A stretch of DNA of 60,747 nucleotides, counting the filler, from Basidiobolus ranarum (lineage: Eukaryota), in NCBI GenBank assembly GCA_040143965.1. It is 9 parts of 9 records of this genome, joined end to end, with 100 filler letters (N's around TTAATTAATTAA, not from the genome) between each part and the next. Parts side by side here need not be neighbours in the genome. Positions count along the whole stretch, not along the records: positions 54,100 to 60,747 come from JASJQH010008153.1; 8 more parts are not named here. One strand, written 5' to 3'. This document shows, in pieces, positions 1 through 60,747 of the stretch. Each line of letters opens with the position of its first letter. The first letter of the stretch is position 1. The position numbers and the translations under genes were made by a program. A model generated the notes under the pieces. It did no database searches. It was given only the letters and a program-made list of their open reading frames with translations, and was not told the origin of the DNA.

Positions 1-70
1 TAAGGGAGATTTCATTAATAATGTTAATTGGAATAAGGAGGAAACTAGAAAGATAAGGATGAATGTTCTT

Positions 71-817
71 TCATAGCGTTATTAAACTTGATGTTTCTGC
101 GGCCTCTTGGATCAACTTCGATTCCAGACCAAGTACCTCCCGCCAAGGCTTGGAAGTTTGTCGGTCCGTTAATGGATTCTGGAGTAAATGACAACTTTGG
201 GAGATCGCCACTCCCGCTAGTACTTTAGATGAATACAGTAAACATAATGGGCTTCGTATAAAATCGCTGACAATCCTGGTCGCTAACAATGAGTGCTTTT
301 GCGTGGCACCACACCGCTTCAACGCCTCAAAGAGATATCGATGAGGTAAATCCAAGTGCAAATCGAAACAGAGCGTCTCTAAAAGAATCTCTTCATGGTA
401 ATAAATCGTCTCCTTCCAACGTCTTATATTTTCGCTCAAATTCTCTATCTTGTGACGATCAGCGGATTTCGAAGATACCATAGTACACTCTTGAAACAAT
501 CGTGATATTTGTTTCGATATCTCTTCAGGATAGTAGCTAAGAAAGTCTTCCTCCTCTTTAATGGCCACAAATAGACAAGTTCCGGCTAGATCATACTGAT
601 GGAATACTCGGAAACTCTGTCGCATGTAAAATCGATGAAAATATAACCCAGCTGCATATATCGTTGTCGGTAACAGTTGTAGATTATGTCCAACTTTGAC
701 AATAAAGTTTACACCTTTCTGTCGCAACCGTTGCTCCTTTTCCCAGGTAGAACCATCACGTATCGAAGGGGTATGCGCCAAATCGTTTTGAGTGAACGTC
801 CAATCATTAAGCTCCAT
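71..817 (-). CDS. Cyclin T/K-like transcriptional cyclin (Pch1/Ctk2/Bur2 type)
   Basis: First ATG at 817 (MELNDWTFTQNDLAHTPSIRDG). Cyclin-box motifs LRQKGVNFI, YFHRFYMRQSF, TCLFVAIKEEE, EEILLETLCFDL..PH. No intron is obvious; the exact 3' end is uncertain because it lies near the contig edge. Confidence 0.85.
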   Translation of the reverse strand: MELNDWTFTQNDLAHTPSIRDGSTWEKEQRLRQKGVNFIVKVGHNLQLLPTTIYAAGLYFHRFYMRQSFRVFHQYDLAGTCLFVAIKEEEDFLSYYPEEISKQISRLFQECTMVSSKSADRHKIENLSENIRRWKETIYYHEEILLETLCFDLHLDLPHRYLFEALKRCGATQKHSLLATRIVSDFIRSPLCLLYSSKVLAGVAISQSCHLLQNPLTDRQTSKPWREVLGLESKLIQEAAETSSLITL

Positions 818-3550
818 ATTGAACGATAGAAACAAATAGGGTAAAAATAACAATAAGTAGAAAGAGGGGGGAGTGGAAGATAACTAAGTCTAAGGTGAAA
901 ATCACCGAAATATTCAAAAAGCCAAGTCTATATTCTCTTGGAAGGAAAGTAGGAGGTACTCAAAGAAGTGAGTATTTTTTGGTAGGTTGGTTTTGTTTTT
1001 TCAGCGGTTATAGCGTTTTGATTTTGGTTTCAATTGTTTGTTATAAAACTGCTACAAGCTGTTTGCTTTTTCTTGTTTTTTTCTTTTTTTGGAATAAAAA
1101 GAATGTGATTGAAAGGAGAACTAAACGAATAAAAAACGTAAGAAAGCTTATAATACAATAAACTTACACTAGGCTTCTGAAGCTAGAAAGTTGACCACTG
1201 GCTTACTTAAGAGTTGGATACAACAAGTGAGTGTGTGTTGGTCGTTATTTGACTCGGTAAAATAATAATATAAAAGACAATGAAGAATAGGACAATATAC
1301 AAAAATAAAGCAATTTGAACTGAGGAAATAGACTAAGCAACTCAACTGCAAAGAAAGGAAAACTACAAAAAGTCGAAGGAAGCGAAAAGGTTTGGAAATC
1401 AAGGTAAATGTATCGGTAAAAAAGAAGTTCAATATTAATCGAAAAAGTTCAACCAGCAAGTAAACTTGAGCAAGGTAGACGTGGTTGAACAAAGGTAGGT
1501 ATCGGAATATTCAACCGAAACTAGACCAAATCTTATCAAAGATCCAAGCTTCGCATACAAAACGTTGGAAACGTTTTGATGTTTTGTATTCCTCTTCTGG
1601 GGTAAAAGAGTATTCGAGATGTACAATTAAGATTGTCTACTTCTCTATGAAAGGTTAAGTATATGATTATTGACTTTCTTCCCGAAAAGAGTTTCTTTCA
1701 GTTAAACCTGAGCCAAAAGAAACAGACGAAAGTTAAATGATAAACTGATATTTTTGGTTCTGTGGATAATAAAAATTGTAAAAGAAAATTATAATCGTGA
1801 ATGAATATATTATCTGGCTCTTCAATTTTTCGATAATATTCTACCAAACAGAGTTAACTAATGTAATATCATCAGCAAATCGTCATCGTCGAACTGTCGG
1901 CAGAACAGCAGAATTTTCCCAGATGGAGAGCAATAGGATCCAGGCATATTCTTAGTACAAACAAATCAATAGAATTGTTATAAGAGTGTAAGGAACCCTT
2001 TCAGGCAATTGGATACAGCTTGCCTCATTGTCTCATAAAATCCATAAATGGAGAGATGGATACAGCATATAGCTAATCATAGCTCATAAAAAATATCGCA
2101 CATTAGTTTTGTCGAGAATATCTTACTTGTGGTTACCCTACATTAATTCGATCATATTCTGTGTAGATATTTTAGTTAATTAAACCTTGAAGTCATGGTA
2201 GTTGAGTAGAGTTATTCAACGAATGAAATATGTGGAATTCAATAATTTCTGGTCACATAATATATACTTTTAGTTTCTAACTTTGGAGTAACTTTACGTT
2301 AATTAACATCAGTCGGCCGAACCAACCGTAATGTATCGGCTCAACATCAAGACCGAAATATATCGACGATTGGCGGTTTAAGTAAGCTGAGCATGGTAAT
2401 TACCGTAGGAGATTTATCCGGGAGTCAACAATAGCTTAGAAGCTATATCGAGTGTTTATTGGATGACCCTTCAGGAAATCCCTATTTTGGGTTTTATCTA
2501 TTAATGTAGTAAAATTTCGGATAGTCACGAAACCTTATGTATATCATGTCCTACACATTCAGTTATCGCTCATTGACTAATACTATCGTTGTATCGCAAT
2601 GGGTTCAGTATTTCCAACACATACCAATATACCTGAATTGGTATACTATCTTGAATATGCTCCCATCATCCGATTTGTTAGTCATTGCGCTATTGCTATA
2701 TATCTACTTAGAATTTTTTACTTATGAAGTTCAATAGAGCGAGATATTACAACTATACATATTTCAAATGGATACATTATCAAATTTTACAAAAGACAAA
2801 TCTGAATAAATCATAAGGTACTTTAACGCTCCGTACGGCTTTTGAGTAGGACATTTATATACATAGGTACTAAAATCGGTCCCAAATCAATTGAAGGTGA
2901 AATGTCAAGTAAAAGTTTGATTAAATCTTAACAAGTTGCGATTGATAGCCCAGTTGATAGCGCGGATGCTCCACATAACTAGGTTGTTGAATGCGACAAG
3001 TTCGAATCACACCAAGAGCCTTTTTTCATTTATTTGATTTGACCGAATTCTCGGATACATCATTGATGTCATCAGCACATGGGCACCCATGAACATTGAT
3101 GATTACAAACCTTGATAATCTAGTGGGGTCTTACTGGTTTATCGTAGTAAAATTTTTCATTGGTTCATACTAATACCCTTCTAAAACGTTACCCAATCAA
3201 AGTTAAATGTTTCATCCTTTTGCCGAATACTCCATTCCAATTTAGTATGTGTTGCATGGTGGGGCTTGAGCGACTGGGGTCGGAGGTGTGCGATAGACCT
3301 CGGTTGCACAAAGGAAAAAAAGTTTGACAGAGTACCAGTCGTATAAATAAGGGACGACAGTTGCTGGATCGGTTTAGACTTTGCAATTTCCACCTTGCAA
3401 CGCAGTCACTTTCGCCTTTTCTTACCGGTCTATTATTATAGATTCAAAATTCAATTTATATTATACATTCATATCTTGTAGATAAAAAATCAAAAATTAC
3501 ACTCGTCAAGAGCATCTGTTAATCCGCACATCTCTAAAGAAACTGCTACC

Positions 3551-6676: not shown

Positions 6677-6776
6677 NNNNNNNNNNNNNNNNNNNNNNNN
6701 NNNNNNNNNNNNNNNNNNNNTTAATTAATTAANNNNNNNNNNNNNNNNNNNNNNNNNNNNNNNNNNNNNNNNNNNN
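6677..6776. other. Artificial contig spacer
   Basis: N44-TTAATTAATTAA-N44 (stops in all six frames). Confidence 0.99.
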
Positions 6777-13446: not shown

Positions 13447-13546
13447 NNNNNNNNNNNNNNNNNNNNNNNNNNNNNNNNNNNNNNNNNNNNTTAATTAATT
13501 AANNNNNNNNNNNNNNNNNNNNNNNNNNNNNNNNNNNNNNNNNNNN
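13447..13546. other. Artificial contig spacer
   Basis: N44-TTAATTAATTAA-N44. Confidence 0.99.
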
Positions 13547-20213: not shown

Positions 20214-20313
20214 NNNNNNNNNNNNNNNNNNNNNNNNNNNNNNNNNNNNNNNNNNNNTTAATTAATTAANNNNNNNNNNNNNNNNNNNNNNNNNNNNNNN
20301 NNNNNNNNNNNNN
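20214..20313. other. Artificial contig spacer
   Basis: N44-TTAATTAATTAA-N44. Confidence 0.99.
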
Positions 20314-26976: not shown

Positions 26977-27076
26977 NNNNNNNNNNNNNNNNNNNNNNNN
27001 NNNNNNNNNNNNNNNNNNNNTTAATTAATTAANNNNNNNNNNNNNNNNNNNNNNNNNNNNNNNNNNNNNNNNNNNN
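26977..27076. other. Artificial contig spacer
   Basis: N44-TTAATTAATTAA-N44. Confidence 0.99.
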
Positions 27077-30669: not shown

Positions 30670-32503
30670 TTATTTAAATACAATGCCTTCAATTGCTTCA
30701 GCAATCAGTCCCTGTGAAATACCACCTCTCACTGAAGTCGGTGGTGGCAATACGAGAAGTTTTCTCAGTCTCTTGCAGTTGGCCATTAACTGCCAAAATA
30801 CTTGATTTGAGAGTTCTGGAGAATTCTGGAATCCCAAATAACGAATCGTCATAAAGCAATGACGAGCAATGGCACTCAATTCTATATCGATGAGTGGCCA
30901 ATGTGGAATATCAAGAAAGCGTAAACGATAACCATGCTTCCGGATAAATTCCAATATAATGGAACTTTCTGGACGTATATCTCCGTTGGTAGATATTGCC
31001 AGCTCTTCAAGTACTTTACAATGTTCAGTAATGGCTTGTAATGTTCTTCGAGTTTGCTGGCGGTTATGTATATCCGTGATATACAAATGTCTTATATGGC
31101 TTCCACATGCTTCGACAACAGCTACTATAGTAGCATCGGTGATACTGGTAGAGGTGCAGTCAAGGTAACGTAATCGAGAGCAATATTGGGCGATCAAAGT
31201 TCCAACCTTATCATCCACAGTATTATTCTTAGAGAGCTTTAAGACTTGAATGCTATTCCCACAATTTATCAATATATTTTCCCAGAAGGAGGCGGCAAAA
31301 TTACCCATTCTGTCTAATTGTGAAAAATCAAGCTCCTTCAAGTTTGCCAATGATGCTGCTTTAGTAAGCTGCGTTAATCCTGGGGCCAACCATTCATTTC
31401 CAGAGATATTGACCTTTCGTAGAGATTTACCACCAGTTAATAGTCTCACTATAGCTAAATCCGCATCCCTTGCTCTCTGCGAAATCCCTCTCATGTCTAA
31501 CTCCACCAGTCTATCACTTAATTTATCAAATGTATCCGTACTTAATGCACATCCAGCAAAGTTGAGCACTTCTATGCGGGGACAGGAGAAGAAGAGAGTC
31601 TCCACAAATACCTCAGTAATACTTTCTCTAGGAATGGCAAGAGACTTCAAATTTGGCGCACGCAATATCAAAGCGCGCAGAATATCAATCCCAGGTCGAG
31701 GGCCAAAAAACTTCAAAGTACGAAGTTCTTTCAAAGTAGGTAATATCTCTACCATCTCAATTAGTCGCTTGCCTAGGAAAGAATTTGCATAATTTTGCCG
31801 AAGTAGAACCAATTCTTCGAGATGAGGCGCATTCTTTAATACTGTCACCAAGTTTCTTAGTCCGGCAATTGGGTCCATAGTAGTATCATGATATTCATAG
31901 AATCTAAGATTTTTCAAGATATCTTTGGGAATTGTTGGGCATTCTAACCCAGAGGAAAGTTTTGGTAAGCGGATAGATGTTAAATTGGGTAAAGACTCCA
32001 GTAACAAGCCTATTCTAGCATTTGTCCAGAATTCCCAATTATATAGAGTGAGGTCTAAAGAACTAACCAACTCAGCTGTACAATATTAATGATTTTGTTT
32101 AGCTGCTTTAATCTTCACAAATGTGTATTTTGTAGACCTAACCTTTTTCGGTATTAACAGCAATTCTTTCGAATCGTTCCAGAGCTCGTTCGGAATAAAA
32201 TATTGGAGATTTCCACAACTCATAAGATGCCATTTTGTTCCATTCTTTACTCACTAGAGAACAAGCCCAAAAGTCGCCTTGATTCTCAAAGAAGGAAAAT
32301 ATCGAAAGGAGAACAGTGTCCGGAAGATATAATCTATATTTACTATCCGAGGTAGCTTGAGACAATTGAGCTTTTATATTTCTTAATGAGGCGGTCACTT
32401 GGGCTGCTAAAGGGAGAACCAACTCCTGTGGTTGCTCTCGGAGTAAGTCAGTCATTACCCTATCAACTTTACCTAGCCATTCGTGAGTCTGCATCGCTTC
32501 CAT
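30670..32503 (-). CDS. F-box/leucine-rich repeat protein
   Basis: F-box LPDTVLLSIFSFF...CSLVSKEWNKMA..LW. Intron 32076-32142 joins TEKA-ELVSSLDL. Many LxxLxL repeats follow (CPRIEVLNFAGC, CSRLRYLDCTSTSITD). Confidence 0.88.
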
Positions 32504-33736: not shown

Positions 33737-33836
33737 NNNNNNNNNNNNNNNNNNNNNNNNNNNNNNNNNNNNNNNNNNNNTTAATTAATTAANNNNNNNN
33801 NNNNNNNNNNNNNNNNNNNNNNNNNNNNNNNNNNNN
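33737..33836. other. Artificial contig spacer
   Basis: N44-TTAATTAATTAA-N44. Confidence 0.99.
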
Positions 33837-37593: not shown

Positions 37594-39635
37594 ATGGAGG
37601 ATAATACCCAAGAACGGCGTAAATGTGGTGAGGTATCCAAGAAAGCCCAAGCCATTATTTACCGTATCTTTCCTATTATTAGTTGGCTTCCTCGATACAA
37701 CAGAGGATGGCTATTCGGAGACTTCATAGCTGGGATTACAATTGGGATCATGGTTGTCCCTCAGGTGAGTTGAATCCCCAAAACATACTCTTTCCTCCGT
37801 ACATCCATCTTATATAACACTGAATTCATTTTTAGGCATTATCCTATGCGTTGATAGCAAATCTTCCTGTTCAGTATGGTCTTTACACTGCCACCTTTAG
37901 CGCCATTCTCTACTGCTTATTTGGAACATCTAAGGATATTAATGTTGGTCCTATAACTATGCTCTCTCTGTTAACTGGCCAGGTAGCTCTAAGGATTGCT
38001 AACACATATGGCTATAGTACACAAGAGGTGGCTATTACGATGGCTTTCATGTCGGGTATTATTCTACTCATTTTGGGAATCTTGCGACTTGGTATTCTTT
38101 TGGATTTCATATCTGCTCCAGTGAGTATTGGCTTTACTACTGGCGCCGCCTTGTCCATTATGTCTACTCAGATACCTTCGCTTTTGGGAGTCAAGGGTAT
38201 AGATACTGAAAGAATGCCAATAATAATCATCATTGAATCTTGCAAGTCCTTACCTCACTCACAATGGGTTGATCTTATCCTCGGTATCTTAGCAATAATC
38301 GTGCTGGCAAGTTTAAATTATATCAAGACTCGTTTTGGTTACAGGTATTTCATCCTCCGATTTCTTGGTACCGCAAGAAATGCCATCGTTATTGTCATCT
38401 TTACTCTTGTAAGCTTGACCATCAAAAGACTGGACGACCAGAGCAAGGTTACCATTATTGGGGATGTTCCAAGGGGCTTACAGCCACCCGAAATCCCAAA
38501 CCTAAATGGCCAACTACTACGTGAAATCGGAGCATCCTCAGGAATTGCCGTGTTACTTGGGTTGATGGAGCATTTTGGCGTTTGTAAATCTATGGGTCGT
38601 AAGAATAAGTATACTACTGATAACAATCAGGAGTTACTTGGATTAGGAGTTTGCAATATTATTGGATCCATCTTTTCTGGTTATTGTGCTAGCGGATCTT
38701 TTTCAAGAGGTGCAGTTAACGCTCAATCAAATGTCAAAACTCCACTTTCTGGCGTTCTTACGGGAGTGATTGCCATATTCTCTTTACTATTTTTACCAAG
38801 TGCTTTCTATTACATCCCTCAAGCCTCTCTTTCAGCCATAATCCTAGTTAGTATGACTGGATTAGTGAGTAGTCCCCGAGTATTCTGGCACATTTGGAAG
38901 ATAGATAAAACAGATTTCATGGCTTCCGTGATAGGTGCTCTTATCACACTTTTCGTCAAGATTGAGACTGGTATATTAATGGCGATTGGGTGTTCTATAA
39001 TCGTACTTCTCTATCGCCTAGCACGTCCCCGAGTAATGTTCCCACTTGGCGTCGATCAGGTGGAAATATTTGGTGGCGAACATTCAGGTGATGTCTCAAG
39101 AGGTGTTGTGATGGTTCGCTTACAAGAGTCATTACTTTTTCCCAATGTAGAATACTTTCGTAGAAAAACCATGAGAAATATCGCCCGTTGTACTCGTTCT
39201 ATCGATACCGTACCTGGTGAGTTAAATTGGTGTGATTGTAAGGCCGAAACTAGAGATTCTGGTAACAGAGATTTAACTACCCTACCATATCTCAAAGCGG
39301 TTATATTTGATATGACGCTAGTTAATCAAATTGACTATTCTGGTGTGCAATGTATTTTGGAGATAAAATCCGAATTGGAGAGATATGTAGAGGTAGATGA
39401 GGTGGAGAACTCAGTTCAGATCTATTATGTGGGTGTAAATCCTACAGTACATAAGAAACTGCAATCGGCCGACCTAATTGCTGAGGAAGCCCCTATTCTT
39501 GCCAAGGCTATTAATGGAATTGAGTTGAAGGGATTGGAGGCTACTAAACTTCGTAAAAATGATGATTCCCTGAACGATGTTCCCAGTGTGGCCATATCAA
39601 TCGATTTTATAAATCAACCGGTCTCCAATAGCTGA
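37594..39635 (+). CDS. SulP/SLC26 sulfate/anion permease with STAS domain
   Basis: FPIISWLPRYN..WLFGDFIAGITIGIMVVPQ, intron 37765-37835, ALSYALIANLPVQYGLY, FGTSKDINVGP, NQELLGLG, GSFSRGAVN, RLQESLLFPN, AVIFDMTLVNQIDYSGVQ. Confidence 0.93.
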
Positions 39636-40495: not shown

Positions 40496-40595
40496 NNNNN
40501 NNNNNNNNNNNNNNNNNNNNNNNNNNNNNNNNNNNNNNNTTAATTAATTAANNNNNNNNNNNNNNNNNNNNNNNNNNNNNNNNNNNNNNNNNNNN
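40496..40595. other. Artificial contig spacer
   Basis: N44-TTAATTAATTAA-N44. Confidence 0.99.
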
Positions 40596-47248: not shown

Positions 47249-47348
47249 NNNNNNNNNNNNNNNNNNNNNNNNNNNNNNNNNNNNNNNNNNNNTTAATTAA
47301 TTAANNNNNNNNNNNNNNNNNNNNNNNNNNNNNNNNNNNNNNNNNNNN
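47249..47348. other. Artificial contig spacer
   Basis: N44-TTAATTAATTAA-N44. Confidence 0.99.
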
Positions 47349-53999: not shown

Positions 54000-54099
54000 N
54001 NNNNNNNNNNNNNNNNNNNNNNNNNNNNNNNNNNNNNNNNNNNTTAATTAATTAANNNNNNNNNNNNNNNNNNNNNNNNNNNNNNNNNNNNNNNNNNNN
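54000..54099. other. Artificial contig spacer
   Basis: N44-TTAATTAATTAA-N44. Confidence 0.99.
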
Positions 54100-55074
54100 T
54101 TCCATATCTTGAACCTTGTAGTGACACTTAACCTTACCCTGAGCAGCAAAGTCGAGAGCCTCAGCAAGATCTTGACGGTTACCAACAATAGAACCACGGA
54201 TGGTCAAACGCTGGAGAACAAGATCGAAGACAGGGAAAGTTCCCTTAGCACCAGCGGGAAGGGCAATGCAAGCAACAGTACCCCAACGACGAGTGTAGTC
54301 AACAGCTTGTTGGAAAGGCTTCTCAGCAGGGGACAAGAGAAGAACACCATGAGACCCTCCATTGGTAACCTTTTTGACTTCAGCGACAACATCATCCTTC
54401 ATAAAGTCAACAAAATGATCGGCACCAAGCTCTTGAGTACAAAGTTGCTTTTTGTCATCACCAGTATCAACGGCTACAACATTCATACCCATAGCCTTTG
54501 CATATTGAATGGCCAAGTGACCGAGACCTCCACCAGCCCCAACAATGGTGACAAACTGACCAGAACGAACCTCAGTTTCCTTGAGACCCTTGTAGACAGT
54601 GACACCAGCACAGAGGATAGGAGCAGCCTCAATGAGAGGAAGATTATCAGGAATACGAGCAACGTGAGAAGCGCGAGCAACACAGTAGTCTTGGAAAGTA
54701 CCATCAACACTGTAACCAGACATATGTTGGTTAGGGCAGACAGTTTCACGACCTTGAATACAGTATTCGCAAGTCATGCAAGCTGAGTGAAGCCAGACGA
54801 CACCGACCTTATCGCCAACCTTGAGATCTTTAACATTTTCACCAACTTGAACAACCTTGCCAGCACCTTCATGCCCTCCCACTAAAGGAAGCTTGGTTGG
54901 AATAGGCCAGTCACCTTCAGCGGCATGAAGATCAGTATGACACACACCAGTGTATTCAATTTTAACCAAAACATCATCTGGACCAGGCTTAGGGACGGGA
55001 ATGGTTTTAATCTCCACTGGTTTATCGTGGGACTCAATAACAGCGGCCTTCTGCGTCTTTGGAATTTGAGTCAT
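54100..55074 (-). CDS. ADH: Zn-dependent alcohol dehydrogenase (cytosolic type), 3' truncated
   Basis: GVCHTDLH, GGHEGAG, structural Zn cysteines C..CEYC.......C, APILCAGVTVYK, GAGGGLGHLA, IRGSIVGNR. Intronless in the visible part. Confidence 0.96.
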
Positions 55075-56235
55075 TTGTAAAGTTGGATATTCTCATCATT
55101 GAGGACTATGTATCAATTTATACTTGCAATTGGAATGCGTGGCATGTGGCTCTGATTTTTGTTAAATCCTCGTAATCGTCGTAATCCGAATGATTCTTTA
55201 TCACACATTACTCTTAGTACAGCTAAATATTAGGGGCTGACGACAAAACCAATTAAGGTAAATGTACGAAGTTGAAGCATTTTCATACATCTAGGATGTA
55301 TCACTACTGTATTAGTGATTCATTATAGTGAATGACGTTTCTTCCCAGAATTGAACATTTGTGTTGCAAAGGCCATGATAAACGGAATAATGGAGCTTTG
55401 ATAAAATATCCGAAAAGTGAATAAACAAATAGTCCTTATTTCTGTGACTATTTTCCAGGCCCTGAAGTTACCAGTGATTTAGTCAGAATACGTGGTCACA
55501 GTTGTCTTATGATTGGCTACAAAGCCGGCTTTACCAGTTCAACGGGTGGAAAATGAAACTAAAAATAAACCTATTGAGGAATATCCGATCTGGATGGAGC
55601 AGTTAGAATCGGTGTGACACGTTAAACAGCATATACAATCTGATAACGCGCTTTTCAAAAGCTTATGGAGAGGGACCAATGAGTAAGGTGTCTAGCATTA
55701 CGTGTGCTTCCGATTCAACTTTTACTGCTTCTCATTATAAGTGTCTTATTGGTTCTAGACTCTTCTTTGTTCCTTTGGTAAATATATAGACCAATCAATC
55801 ATATTTACTGTCAGTCGAAAACACGTGAACCACGATTGTTCTCTGACCAATTGAAGTTGATCTGTCAAATGTGACAGTCATAGTGAGAGTTACGTGACGT
55901 ATAGTTCGGATGATTCGTATCCTAAAACTAAAACTTGCCGGTGGCATTACTTGAACAGCAACATAGCCATAATATAGCCTCAGAACAGGGCTAGTAGAGT
56001 TTAAATGGGGGAGAAAATCATTGGGCAAGGATTGCAGATATTAATTCATAAACGTAGCTGGGAATAAGAATTGGGAATTGAGTGGTAATGAGAATTGGAA
56101 ATTGTGAAAAATATTATACTACAACCACAAATTCGCCTAATAATTTGATAACGTAACCAGAATCAGACTCAATATAAAGTGGGTGGAATCCTTTGAGTAG
56201 TCTAGCATTTCCTTCAGAGTAAATATCATTTCACC
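55075..56235. promoter_or_regulatory. Divergent ADH/PDC promoter region
   Basis: Minus-strand TATAAA near 55120 (ADH) and plus-strand TATAAA near 56173 (PDC). Five ACGTG cores lie between 55490 and 55896. Confidence 0.65.
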
Positions 56236-57993
56236 ATGTCTGCCAATACTGAAACTATGACCGTTAGTCAATACCTATTGCACCGTCTGAAGGAAATTGG
56301 CATCGATGATATCTTCTCTGTTCCTGGTGATTTCAACCTTGTCTTTTTGGATCGTGTACAAGATTCCGGATTAATCAATCTTGTCGGTGACTGTAATGAG
56401 TTGAACGCAGCTTATGCTGCAGATGGCTACGCTAGAGTGAAAGGTGTTGGCGTAAGTTTGTCTTTTGTACAATGACATTTGCGATTACTTTAACAGTGAC
56501 TAATACAAGGTAATCTTTTCGGTTTACAGGCAGTAATCACCACATTCGGTGTAGGAGAGCTAAGCGCTGTCAATGGTATTGCTGGTTCTTACTCTGAGAT
56601 GGTTCCAGTTGTAAAGATCACTGGTACCCCTAACACAAAATCTCAGGCTTCTGGCGCTCTTCTCCATCACACTCTTGGTAATGGCGACTTCCGTGCTTTC
56701 CAAAAGATTTTCAGCCACATCACTGTCACCAACACTACCTTACTGCCTCACAATGCCGCTTCCGAGATCGACAGGGTTTTAACCGAGTGTGTCCAAAAGG
56801 TTCGCCCCGTCTACATCTCTCTCCCTACTGACGTCGTTGATGCTGAAATTACAGTAGACAAGAAGCCATTGAATCTAGCACTTCCACCAAACCCTGAAAA
56901 AATTGAGGCTGCTTGTATTCGTCAAATTGCCAAGGCTGTTGAAGAGGCAAAGGATCCTATTATCATTGCTGATGCTTGTGCTATTCGTCACCACTGCGAG
57001 AAGGAACTTCTTGAATTAATTGAGAAAACTGGTTTACCATTCTACACCACTCCCATGGGTAAAGCTGTAATCAGTGAAAGTCATCCTCAATTCCGTGGTA
57101 TCTATGTGGGATCTCTTTCTAACGTCAGGGTTAAGGATGAGGTCGAGAATGCTGATCTTATCCTCAGCATTGGTGGCTTGAAGTCAGATTTCAACACTGG
57201 TTCTTTCAGTTACCGTATGGATACCGACAAGACTGTTGAAATTCACTCTGACTATACTGATGTCTTTTTCGGAACTTACAAGGCTGTTGGTATGAAGTAT
57301 CTACTGCCCAAGTTGGCATCAGTGATCCCCAAGCGTGAGTTCAAGCGTATTGGTGCTTTGTCCAACGAAGTTCCTCAAATTGATATGAAGGCTATGGTTC
57401 CTCAAGCATGGTTTTGGCCTAGAATGGGACAGTTTATGAAGGCCAATGATATTGTTGTTGCTGAAACTGGTACTTCAGTCTTCGGTGCTTTGAACTCTCA
57501 CTTGCCAGAAGGAGCTACCTTCATTTCCCAGATTCTTTGGGGCTCTATTGGATATACTGTTGGCTCCACACTTGGAGCTGCAGTTGCAGGTGGGGCTCGT
57601 CGTGTAATTTTATTCGTTGGTGATGGTAGTTTCCAGCTTACCTGCCAAGAAGTGTCTGTCATGATTCGCCTCGGTCTTCATCCAATCATTTTCTTACTGA
57701 ACAACAACGGATACACCATTGAACGTTTAATTCACGGAGTCAAGCGTACTTACAACGATATTGATAACTGGGACTTCAGCAAGACCCTTGACTACTTTGG
57801 TGGTGCTGCCGGACAAGACAAGATTGGTTTCCAAGGTCGTGCTAACACTGCTGAGGAATTTGAGCAAGTTTTGAAGAAAGTGGAATCCCACAATGATAAA
57901 ATCAACTTTGTTGAAGTAATGATGGATTGGTTGGATGCTCCTGAGAACTTAGTCAAACAAGCTGAAGCTTCAGCTGCTCTTAATCGATCATAA
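56236..57993 (+). CDS. PDC: Pyruvate decarboxylase (TPP-dependent 2-oxo-acid decarboxylase)
   Basis: YLLHRLKE..FSVPGDFNL, CNELNAAYAADGYAR, intron 56452-56529, TTFGVGELSAVNGIAGSYSE, LLHHTLGNGDF, AETGTS, QILWGSIGY, GDGSFQLT..E, NNNGYTIERLIHG. Confidence 0.95.
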
Positions 57994-58274
57994 TTTATCA
58001 ACTATTTTTGATTATATATGAGATGTAGTTGCCCTGAGCTATTGTGAATATATTATGTGTGAATTTAAACAATAAAAAGAAATTTAAACATGAAACTTGC
58101 CAATTAAGTAATATCAAAAAAAGACAGTATATTGTCTCGTGATGGAATTCATTAGAACATTAAACTGTTGATATTTTCCATAATTTAGTATGAAAATAAC
58201 TTTATTAATTTGTACAGATATTTCGGCTACTGAAACAGGATTCCAATATATTCTAAACAGTGATTTATACATCT

Positions 58275-59489
58275 TTAAATTCTGTTCTTTTTAGTAAGAT
58301 CATCGTTGCCTCCATTCTCCTTTCTCTTTCCTGATAAGTCGAGAACAATACGACCTGCGATCTTGCCTGCCTTCATTTCATCAAAGACTGAAGGCAGATC
58401 TTCCAATGTTAGTGTCTTGTAATGACACTTGACCTTACCCTGGGCAGCAAAGTCAAGGGCCTCAGCAAGATCTTGACGGTTACCAACAATAGAACCACGG
58501 ATGGTCAAACGTTGAAGAACAAGATCGAAGACAGGGAAAGAGCCCTTAGCACCAGCGGGAAGGGCGATACAAGCAACAGTACCCCAACGACGAGTGTAGT
58601 CGACAGCTTGTTGGAAAGGCTTCTCAGCAGGGGACAAGAGAAGAACACCATGAGACCCTCCATTAGTAACCTCCTTTACGGTGGCAACAACATCATCCTT
58701 CATGAAATCAACAAAGTGATCAGCTCCGAGCTGCTCAACACACAGCTTCTTCTTGTCATCGCCAGTATCAACGGCTACAACATTCATACCCATAGCCTTA
58801 GCATATTGAACAGCCAAATGACCAAGACCTCCACCAGCACCAACAATGGTCACATACTGACCAGAGCGAACCTCAGTTTCCTTGAGGCCCTTGTAGACAG
58901 TGACACCAGCACAGAGGATAGGGGCAGCCTCAATAAGAGGAAGCTTGTCAGGAATACGAGCAACGTGAGAAGCACGAGCGACACAGTATTCTTGGAAAGA
59001 ACCATCCACGCTATAACCGGACATATGTTGATCAGGGCAGACAGTCTCACGACCTTGGATGCAGTATTCGCAGGTCATGCAAGCAGAATGGAGCCAGACA
59101 ACACCGACTCTGTCACCGATTTTGAGATCCTTAACATTGCTACCGAGAGCGACGACCTTACCGGCACCTTCGTGACCACCAACCAAAGGAAGCTTGGTAG
59201 GAATAGGCCAGTCACCATCAGCAGCGTGAAGATCAGTGTGGCAAACGCCTGTGTACTCGACCTTTACAAGGACATCATCGGGGCCAGGAGTAGGAACAGG
59301 GATATCTTGAATGGTTACAGGCTTGGTGTGAGAAGTCACGACTGCACCGCGTTGAAATTGTGGAATTGAATACATTCTCAAAAAATTACGTGTAGCTGAG
59401 ATTTGAGATGGAAACACACGGTTAGGTACCATACGAGTTTTTAACAAACATTTAGCGACCTGAAAATTTTTTAAAAGGATGGACGTCAT
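58275..59489 (-). CDS. ADH: Zn-dependent alcohol dehydrogenase with mitochondrial-type presequence and C-terminal extension
   Basis: All ADH motifs as above. 38-aa acid-free, R/K/S/T-rich N-extension, and a tail after GRIVLDL (SGKRKENGGNDDLTKKNRI). Intronless. Confidence 0.95.
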   Translation of the reverse strand: MTSILLKNFQVAKCLLKTRMVPNRVFPSQISATRNFLRMYSIPQFQRGAVVTSHTKPVTIQDIPVPTPGPDDVLVKVEYTGVCHTDLHAADGDWPIPTKLPLVGGHEGAGKVVALGSNVKDLKIGDRVGVVWLHSACMTCEYCIQGRETVCPDQHMSGYSVDGSFQEYCVARASHVARIPDKLPLIEAAPILCAGVTVYKGLKETEVRSGQYVTIVGAGGGLGHLAVQYAKAMGMNVVAVDTGDDKKKLCVEQLGADHFVDFMKDDVVATVKEVTNGGSHGVLLLSPAEKPFQQAVDYTRRWGTVACIALPAGAKGSFPVFDLVLQRLTIRGSIVGNRQDLAEALDFAAQGKVKCHYKTLTLEDLPSVFDEMKAGKIAGRIVLDLSGKRKENGGNDDLTKKNRI

Positions 59490-60035
59490 CTTGTGAAGTG
59501 ATTTGAAACTGTCTCATTCGCAGACTTCCCCTTTTAATAAACATTTCACCAGCAAATGTTTTTCTAGAATCGCGAACGCCATTATGTGGAAGTAAACCCA
59601 GTCCGCTAATCTCATTGGACTTTGTTTACGATAAAACCCTTGATTCTTGTCATGGGTTTGACTGGCTATCGAACAGTGAGGACGCGAATTTCTATCTGAG
59701 CGAAAAATCCCATTAACGGGCCTCGAACGTACACTGAAGGGGATATTACGCTGAGTGGCTCTAAAACATCCCATTTCATTCGCGATATGGCTCACATATT
59801 TACTTATGATTTGTAATCTCCATATATATCCAGGAGGTAGATGGATTATAAATACTAATGCGAGTCTGGGTTTCTTTTATTGATTATTTTGATATAGCAA
59901 TTTACAAGTTCCGTACTAACCATTGTAGCTCCAGAACCAAACTTCTAGATTTCTTATTAACAATCATGTCCTCAAACAACTGAGAAATGACTCACTTTCA
60001 CCTTGAATGTCCAATAAATGGATATCTAATGCAGT

Positions 60036-60747
60036 TCAATGGTTGTGCATATCTAGAACGATGCGACCAGCTATCTTACCAGTTTCCATATCTTCGAATA
60101 CCTGAGGAATAGTTTCAATATCTTGAACCTTATAGTGACACTTTACTTTAGCACGAGCAGCAAAGTCAAGAGCTTCAGTAAGATCTTGACGGTTGCCAAG
60201 AATAGAACCACGGATGGTCAAACGCTTGAGAACAAGATCGAATACGGGGAAAGTTCCTGTAGCATTAGGTGGAAGAGCAATACAAACAACAGTACCCCAA
60301 CGACGAGTATAGTCAACAGCTTGTTGGAAAGGTCTCTCAGCAGGAGACAAGAGGAGAACACCATGAGATCCACCCCCAGTAACCTTCTTGACAGTAGCAA
60401 CGACATCATCCTTCATAAAGTCAACAAAATAGTCAGCTCCAAGTTCTTCGACACACATTTTTCTCTTGTCATCACCAGTATCAACGGCAACAACATTCAT
60501 ACCCATAGCCTTAGCATATTGGATGGCCAAGTGACCGAGGCCTCCAGCAGCACCAACAATGGTGATGAATTGGCCAGAGCGAACCTCGGTCTCCTTGAGA
60601 CCCTTGTAGACAGTGACACCAGCACAAAAGATAGGGGCAGCCTCAACAAGAGGAAGGTTATCAGGAATACGAGCAACGTGGGAGGCACGAGCAACACAGT
60701 ATTCTTGGAAAGTAGCATCAACACTGTAAGCAGACAAATTTTGATTA
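60036..60747 (-). CDS. ADH: Zn-dependent alcohol dehydrogenase, third paralog, 5' truncated
   Basis: APIFCAGVTVYKGLKET, GAAGGLGHLA, IRGSILGNR, GKIAGRIVLDMHNH*. Confidence 0.93.
   Translation of the reverse strand, partial: NQNLSAYSVDATFQEYCVARASHVARIPDNLPLVEAAPIFCAGVTVYKGLKETEVRSGQFITIVGAAGGLGHLAIQYAKAMGMNVVAVDTGDDKRKMCVEELGADYFVDFMKDDVVATVKKVTGGGSHGVLLLSPAERPFQQAVDYTRRWGTVVCIALPPNATGTFPVFDLVLKRLTIRGSILGNRQDLTEALDFAARAKVKCHYKVQDIETIPQVFEDMETGKIAGRIVLDMHNH

Follow-up and report, generated by a model that had tools for sequence, protein, structure and literature searches.

Pyruvate decarboxylase (PDC) and alcohol dehydrogenase (ADH) catalyze the two terminal steps of alcoholic fermentation. 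PDC, which depends on thiamine diphosphate (ThDP) and Mg, converts pyruvate to acetaldehyde and CO2, and ADH reduces acetaldehyde with NADH to yield ethanol and NAD+. In yeast, the two genes are a textbook unlinked pair. Eukaryotic primary-metabolism clusters are rare and serve to test co-regulation, co-inheritance, and toxic-intermediate avoidance as causes of clustering; fungal examples include the GAL, DAL, and nitrate assimilation clusters and the alc cluster of Aspergillus nidulans. The alc cluster serves ethanol use and is not known to include a PDC gene, and the PET operon, which combines Zymomonas pdc and adhB, is engineered. Here we describe the last contig of a 60,747-nucleotide stretch of DNA from Basidiobolus ranarum (hereafter the window, meaning the whole stretch analyzed), on which a PDC gene lies between ADH paralogs. 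This is a real linked fermentation locus, probably another member of the fungal primary-metabolism clusters, and its host is, as the original prediction had supposed, an early-diverging fungus.

The B. ranarum enzymes belong to the same families as PDC1, the cytosolic ADH1, and the mitochondrial ADH3 of yeast and K. lactis, with the PDC catalytic residues present and ADH matching yeast ADH1 at ~1e-110. Like yeast, B. ranarum has several ADH isozymes, one of which (ADH-B) has a presequence-like N terminus, while unlike those of yeast its PDC and ADH genes are direct neighbors. The locus resembles the GAL/DAL/alc-type clusters in that non-homologous genes for consecutive steps adjoin, with a divergent promoter and a toxic common intermediate, acetaldehyde, but it differs from them in having no pathway-specific regulator or transporter within its 6.6 kb. 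The PET operon and bacterial pdc-adh neighborhoods place the same two reactions side by side; these, however, are prokaryotic operons, whereas the B. ranarum genes are separate eukaryotic transcription units. A further parallel is in Basidiobolus meristosporus, which has orthologs of PDC (93% and 90% identity) and ADH (93% to ADH-A), annotated as PdcB or a PDC isozyme and as “GroES-like protein.” Two full PDC copies are assembled in that species, while the second copy of B. ranarum is present as fragments only.

The original prediction had known of no described natural PDC-ADH cluster in early-diverging fungi, and in the full-text literature searched we likewise found no description of such a cluster in any fungus, nor anything on PDC or fermentation in Basidiobolus. 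Term searches of PMC4347624 and PMC11381361 gave no matches; those of Wisecaver et al. 2014 (PMC4256263) gave none in the main text or in the supplements covered. In the available part of a paper on Pichia stipitis gene clusters, PDC and ADH are discussed, not as neighbors (PMC2784038), and the available part of another describes a G. diazotrophicus pdc gene divergent from a LysR regulator (PMC4428508).

The window consists of nine unrelated contigs of ~6.65 kb each, joined by artificial linkers of the form N44-TTAATTAATTAA-N44 (6677..6776, 13447..13546, 20214..20313, 26977..27076, 33737..33836, 40496..40595, 47249..47348, and the spacer listed in Table 1), and linkage that spans any of these linkers is not real. 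All four genes considered here lie on a single contig, 54100..60747 (6648 bp), directly after the last spacer. They were delimited by stop-to-stop open reading frames (ORFs), sequence reading, and Pfam. The original prediction had read the contig as an uninterrupted 6.6 kb on which a PDC is flanked by three zinc-ADH paralogs with no intervening gene, one of them head-to-head with PDC across 1.16 kb, and this layout was recovered in full (Table 1). None of the four intergenic ORFs of at least 60 aa had a Pfam match, and an Rfam scan of the contig gave no matches. Both contig ends fall inside ADH genes, as had also been claimed: ~25 C-terminal codons of ADH-A and ~114 N-terminal codons of ADH-C lie past the left and right ends, respectively. 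Repeats on the contig are limited to the ADH coding regions, which are direct repeats whose starts lie 4301 and 1713 bp apart; therefore, all three ADHs are co-oriented and form a tandem array with the opposite-strand PDC between ADH-A and ADH-B. At least two non-homologous genes of the same pathway are thus direct neighbors, as is expected of a gene cluster. Searches of the window by tblastn matched this contig only; its eight companions yielded no further parts of ADH or PDC genes.

Table 1. Features of the B. ranarum PDC-ADH contig and of the spacer that precedes it (positions along the window)
Feature	Position	Strand	Description
ADH-A	54100..55074	minus	ADH1-type zinc alcohol dehydrogenase, 325 codons from ATG 55074..55072, ADH_N + ADH_zinc_N
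ADH-A/PDC divergent intergenic region	55075..56235	none	1161 bp between start codons, no Pfam/Rfam feature
PDC exon 1	56236..56451	plus	72 codons, start of TPP_enzyme_N
PDC intron	56452..56529	plus	78 nt, GTAAGT...CAG
PDC exon 2 incl. stop	56530..57993	plus	rest of TPP_enzyme_N, then TPP_enzyme_M and TPP_enzyme_C
PDC/ADH-B spacer	57994..58274	none	281 bp, convergent 3' ends (stop to stop)
ADH-B	58275..59489	minus	complete ADH1-type zinc alcohol dehydrogenase, 404 aa + stop
ADH-B N-terminal extension	59376..59489	minus	38 codons, presequence-like
ADH-B/ADH-C spacer	59490..60035	none	546 bp, ADH-B start to ADH-C stop, ADH-B promoter region
ADH-C	60036..60746	minus	ADH1-type zinc alcohol dehydrogenase, C-terminal 236 codons + stop
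Artificial spacer N44-TTAATTAATTAA-N44	54000..54099	none	separates unrelated contigs, not biology

Comparison with B. meristosporus CBS 931.73 indicates that the linkage is not confined to B. ranarum. Two PDCs of that organism, P0002 and P0003 (93% and 90% identical to the B. ranarum protein), and two ADHs, P0122 (93% identical to ADH-A) and the divergent P0125 (59%), all report a 260,741-bp contig. Four clusters from one organism on a contig of this length almost certainly mean one scaffold, which amounts to ~0.3% of the genome, given the 89.48 Mb stated in the available part of PMC10526403. Contig membership thus shows a PDC-ADH linkage that is, at the scaffold level, older than the split between B. 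ranarum and B. meristosporus. The original prediction had counted an absence of linkage in relatives as evidence against it; the finding of PDC and ADHs on one B. meristosporus scaffold speaks for it, and the conservation seen is at the scaffold level and in one congener.

P0001, the protein encoded at the B. ranarum locus, and P0002 are 93.2% identical, whereas their identities to P0003 are 89.9% and 89.7%; as P0003 is the most distant of the three, the PDC gene had duplicated before the two species separated. In B. ranarum, P0245 (K7432_017396) is an N-terminal PDC fragment of 145 aa on a 2144-bp contig that is 96.5% identical to P0003, of which it is evidently the ortholog, and P0241 (K7432_017415) comprises the C-terminal 258 aa on a 2121-bp contig, 88-90% identical to the three full-length PDCs. 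Both are fragments of at least one further B. ranarum PDC gene that was broken in assembly. These fragments bear on the suggestion that the PDC/ADH array may be larger than the contig, and support it only indirectly.

The spliced PDC product (559 aa) is 100% identical to the hypothetical protein K7432_013261 of B. ranarum (P0001), which confirms the splice, and Pfam scans of exon 1 and exon 2 separately recovered the three-domain TPP_enzyme_N/_M/_C architecture. Its closest solved relatives are the yeast PDCs (K. lactis 2vjy, E=1e-160; S. cerevisiae 1qpb, E=2e-157). When aligned with 1qpb_A, with residue numbers counted along the printed alignment, it retains D28, E51, E91, H114, H115, C221, D291, F292, T388, W412, I476, and E477. 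Among these, we take D28, H114, H115, and E477 of yeast PDC1 to be catalytic and F292, T388, and I476 to be pocket residues. GDG(X)nNN, presumably the ThDP/Mg motif, is retained as GDGS...NNNGYTIE, and so is NELNAAYAADGYAR, which holds E51, presumably the cofactor-activating Glu. The retained residues support the assignment of a pyruvate-type decarboxylase.

The PDC protein search gave 6290 matches among 7999 scored candidates, of which the best 120 were listed. After P0001, the next matches are P0002 and P0003. Outside Basidiobolus, identities among the listed matches are 50-57% and come from Mucoromycota, Glomeromycota, bdelloid rotifers, and Basidiomycota, so that no listed PDC of another fungal genus exceeds 57%. 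Bdelloid rotifer PDCs (Adineta, Rotaria, and Didymodactylos; 49-51% identical to the Basidiobolus PDC) ranked among the listed fungal matches, in keeping with the fungal-type PDCs already known from bdelloids.

The zinc-ADH identities of the other three genes, called in the original prediction together with that of PDC, were borne out by Pfam and by active-site and motif alignments. ADH-A and ADH-B contain both ADH_N and ADH_zinc_N, while ADH-C matches ADH_zinc_N alone because its N terminus lies off the contig. Among solved structures, ADH-B is nearest to ADH1-type enzymes of bacteria and yeasts (1e-115 to 1e-109); K. phaffii mitochondrial ADH III and S. cerevisiae ADH1 are among them (1e-112 to 1e-109). 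In an alignment of nine sequences that includes ADH-A and ADH-B, the residues C83, H106, and C193 (ADH-B numbering), which we take to be the catalytic zinc ligands, and C137, C140, C143, and C151, presumably the structural-zinc cysteines, are invariant, as are the NAD motif G217-A-G-G-G-L-G223 (GxGxxG) and D241, the acidic NAD-binding residue that closes beta-B. Within the contig, ADH-C has only the last Cys of the catalytic zinc ligands, and its NAD-binding region reads GAAGGLG and VDTGD. The retained active-site and motif residues support the view that these are NAD-dependent, narrow-pocket ADH1-type zinc enzymes.

The three ADHs are well separated from each other. Amino acid identities are 89% for ADH-A and ADH-B, 87% for ADH-A and ADH-C (211 common residues), and 81% for ADH-B and ADH-C; the nucleotide identities of the same pairs are 83.4, 86.7 (over 633 nt), and 81.2%, and the longest identical nucleotide run is one of 62 nt between ADH-A and ADH-B. 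By the Nei-Gojobori method, synonymous divergence (dS) is 0.70, 0.44, and 0.69 for the three pairs, and the ratio of nonsynonymous to synonymous divergence (dN/dS) is 0.12, 0.16, and 0.14, respectively. The ADHs are evidently old duplicates, each under purifying selection, and not a recent or collapsed repeat. At 87% amino acid and 86.7% nucleotide identity, ADH-A and ADH-C are also ruled out as one gene seen at both contig ends through a circular or tandem-collapse artifact. In an ADH tree built for dating the duplications relative to the species split, 8 of the 10 inner branches had support below 80.

ADH-B differs from its relatives at both termini. Its C-terminal tail is 16 aa longer in the nine-sequence alignment, and its 38-aa N-terminal extension is amphipathic and contains 7 K/R, 6 S/T, and no D/E. 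The maximal hydrophobic moment of the extension is 0.53, compared with a 95th percentile of 0.37 in the core of the protein. Met39 aligns with the start of ADH-A and is a possible alternative translation start. The extension resembles a mitochondrial presequence, and we give roughly equal weight to targeting of ADH-B to mitochondria and to its absence.

All four genes share a strong codon bias. The effective number of codons (Nc) is 36.2 for ADH-A, 36.3 for ADH-C, 38.8 for the ADH-B core, and 43.4 for PDC exon 2, as against 50.6-57.3 for five other host ORFs of at least 250 aa in the window. Fermentative genes are usually highly expressed, and the bias of all four genes would fit high expression. 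A TATAAA element lies ~45 bp ahead of the ADH-A ATG (minus strand, 55122..55117) and another ~60 bp ahead of the PDC ATG (plus strand, 56173..56178); with one such element near each start, ~1 kb apart, ADH-A and PDC therefore have their own core promoters. The divergent region also contains a single CACGTG palindrome (55822..55827). E-box, CRE, and RCGTG patterns occurred in the divergent region only, in counts that carry no significance control, and an SRE-like pattern had no matches in either promoter region (55075..56235 and 59490..60035).

With modest confidence, we favor the view that this is a genuine B. ranarum locus in which PDC sits inside a co-oriented tandem ADH array, linking the terminal steps of fermentation, and that the linkage is selected or co-controlled. 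The linked locus itself was inherited from an ancestor from which B. meristosporus also descends; its genes are intact, under constraint, and biased in codon use. If this view is right, the locus would provide highly expressed enzymes for the last two steps of alcoholic fermentation, and ADH-A and PDC might be co-controlled from their common 1.16-kb divergent promoter region. The linkage of a producer and a consumer of toxic acetaldehyde would be advantageous, and ADH-B could act as a mitochondrial isozyme by means of its basic, acid-free extension.

Several observations weigh against this interpretation. The B. meristosporus evidence is a common scaffold and not direct gene adjacency; as the two species are congeneric, common linkage may be plain inherited synteny without selection. 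Between the divergent region and the ADH-B promoter region, common k-mers (k = 8-12) were at or below shuffle means (22 common 8-mers against a shuffle mean of 28, and one 10-mer against 2.0), and ADH/PDC co-regulation is unsupported by sequence; the co-induction under hypoxia that the original prediction had raised as a possibility would be conjecture. The background for codon bias consists of the five ORFs of the window only. In the presumed substrate-activation relay of yeast PDC1 (C221-H92-E91-W412), C221, E91, and W412 are retained, while His92 is replaced by Met. The N-terminal extension of ADH-B is absent from every Basidiobolus relative found (coverage 85-86%). Finally, the Basidiobolus zinc-ADH family is large, with 25 members in B. 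meristosporus, the second highest number among 37 fungi according to the available part of PMC10526403, and this raises the chance of incidental ADH neighbors.

The last point underlies the main rival, incidental adjacency in an expanded ADH family. The ADH1-type family may have grown by local tandem duplication, with one array happening to form around PDC, so that the linkage would have no regulatory or selective meaning. This we regard as possible, if somewhat unlikely. It would account for the co-oriented direct repeats, which are typical of tandem duplication, as well as for promoter regions that have no common motif beyond chance. Further B. meristosporus ADH paralogs lie elsewhere (P0123 and P0124, whose contigs are 37,979 and 180,378 bp long, respectively), and the conservation is seen in a congener only. 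Chance adjacency fits less well with the next-step enzyme standing on both sides of PDC, with both PDCs and two ADHs of B. meristosporus sharing a scaffold that makes up so small a part of the genome as sized in the available text, or with the unusually strong codon bias common to all four genes.

It is tempting to go further and to see a “fermentation supergene” in which PDC and ADH modules were selected and duplicated as blocks. Block duplication would then explain the two PDCs and several ADHs on the B. meristosporus scaffold and the second, unassembled PDC copy of B. ranarum. Linked inheritance and common control of the producer and the consumer of acetaldehyde would shield this gut dweller when it grows under hypoxia, with a mitochondrial ADH-B serving an ethanol-acetaldehyde redox shuttle. 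We consider this extension of the favored reading doubtful; if true, it would make the locus the first eukaryotic example of a natural cluster that covers both fermentation steps from pyruvate to ethanol.

A role other than the conversion of glucose to ethanol is quite unlikely. The locus might serve the Ehrlich pathway, with a broad-range 2-oxo-acid decarboxylase and fusel alcohols as products, or alcohol oxidation in the manner of yeast ADH2. A branched-chain-2-oxoacid decarboxylase chain, 9axw, scores near the PDC chains (E=1e-157), strong matches extend to KdcA-type and indolepyruvate decarboxylases, and sequence gives no direction for the ADH reaction. The 9axw alignment, however, runs almost letter for letter as that of yeast PDC1, the residues aligned with F292, T388, I476, and E477 are all retained, and the nearest named relatives are annotated as pyruvate decarboxylase. 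A chimeric contig, joined through similar ADH sequences and hence with no real linkage, is very improbable: the assembly is fragmented (6.6-kb contigs here and PDC fragments on 2.1-kb contigs), both contig ends are inside ADH paralogs, and ADH-A and ADH-B share a 62-nt run, but PDC is tied to both of these genes by unique, non-repeated spacers, a false join would need to fall within ADH-B with the reading frame intact, and the independent B. meristosporus assembly has PDC and ADH orthologs on its 260,741-bp contig.

As the enzymes are ordinary and an annotated sequence is already public, the novelty, if any, is in the arrangement only. If true, a conserved natural cluster of PDC and ADH genes in a gut-associated fungus of an early-diverging lineage would be a clean test case for toxic-intermediate avoidance, because the two enzymes share toxic acetaldehyde and their genes are the classic example of an unlinked pair in yeast. 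Such a cluster would also be a hint that fermentation is important to the way of life of Basidiobolus.

For comparison with prokaryotes, bacterial and archaeal genomes were scanned, one per species. The scan gave 577 PDC-like stretches, and the best 80 loci, with 39-49% identity to the fungal PDC, were retained. A zinc-ADH-like match (tblastn, E <= 1e-5) was found near the PDC-like gene in 2 of these 80 loci, in flanks of up to 6 kb that are shorter at some loci where contigs end; Fe-type ADHs were not scanned. Prokaryotes, too, therefore seldom have the PDC-ADH arrangement, at least with zinc-type ADH. One locus (L013), in a Limisphaerales metagenome-assembled genome (JBKJSC010000086.1, 3270 bp), carries pyruvate kinase (3..1040), a PDC-like gene (1042..2709), and the N-domain of a zinc-ADH (2724..3269) in a single orientation and only a few bases apart, the zinc-ADH being cut by the contig end. 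Judged by this gene order, L013 is a natural operon-like analogue, predicted to encode three consecutive steps from phosphoenolpyruvate to ethanol. A bacterial origin of the B. ranarum cluster is not indicated, given that the nearest non-Basidiobolus PDCs are fungal or rotifer (50-57%), that the bacterial ones are at 39-49%, and that ADH neighbors are found at 2 of 80 loci. The bacterial identities are almost as close as those of the non-Basidiobolus fungal PDCs (50-57% among the matches listed). PDC-like genes at this level of identity are widespread in bacteria, and their carriers among the best 80 loci include Legionella, Coxiellaceae, Nostoc and other cyanobacteria, the Bacillus cereus group, Sporolactobacillus, Sarcina, gastric Helicobacter species, and a Methanocellaceae archaeon.

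The ORFs that served as background for codon bias gave Pfam matches to a cyclin, a leucine-rich repeat (LRR) protein, a SulP sulfate permease, and, weakly, UIM, while the fifth had none. Three of these ordinary host genes lie on other contigs of the window: that of the SulP permease, which also has a STAS domain, at 37836..39632 (plus), that of the cyclin at 74..883 (minus), and that of the LRR protein at 30673..32085 (minus). Stop-free antisense frames stand opposite all three ADHs, at 58413..59369 (plus, 318 aa), 54052..54786 (plus, 244 aa), and 60057..60746 (plus, 230 aa). The 318-aa frame, the one antisense ORF scanned, had no Pfam match, and its G+C content at third codon positions (GC3) is 0.66. 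Most likely these long frames are not genes and simply result from the strong codon bias of the sense strand.

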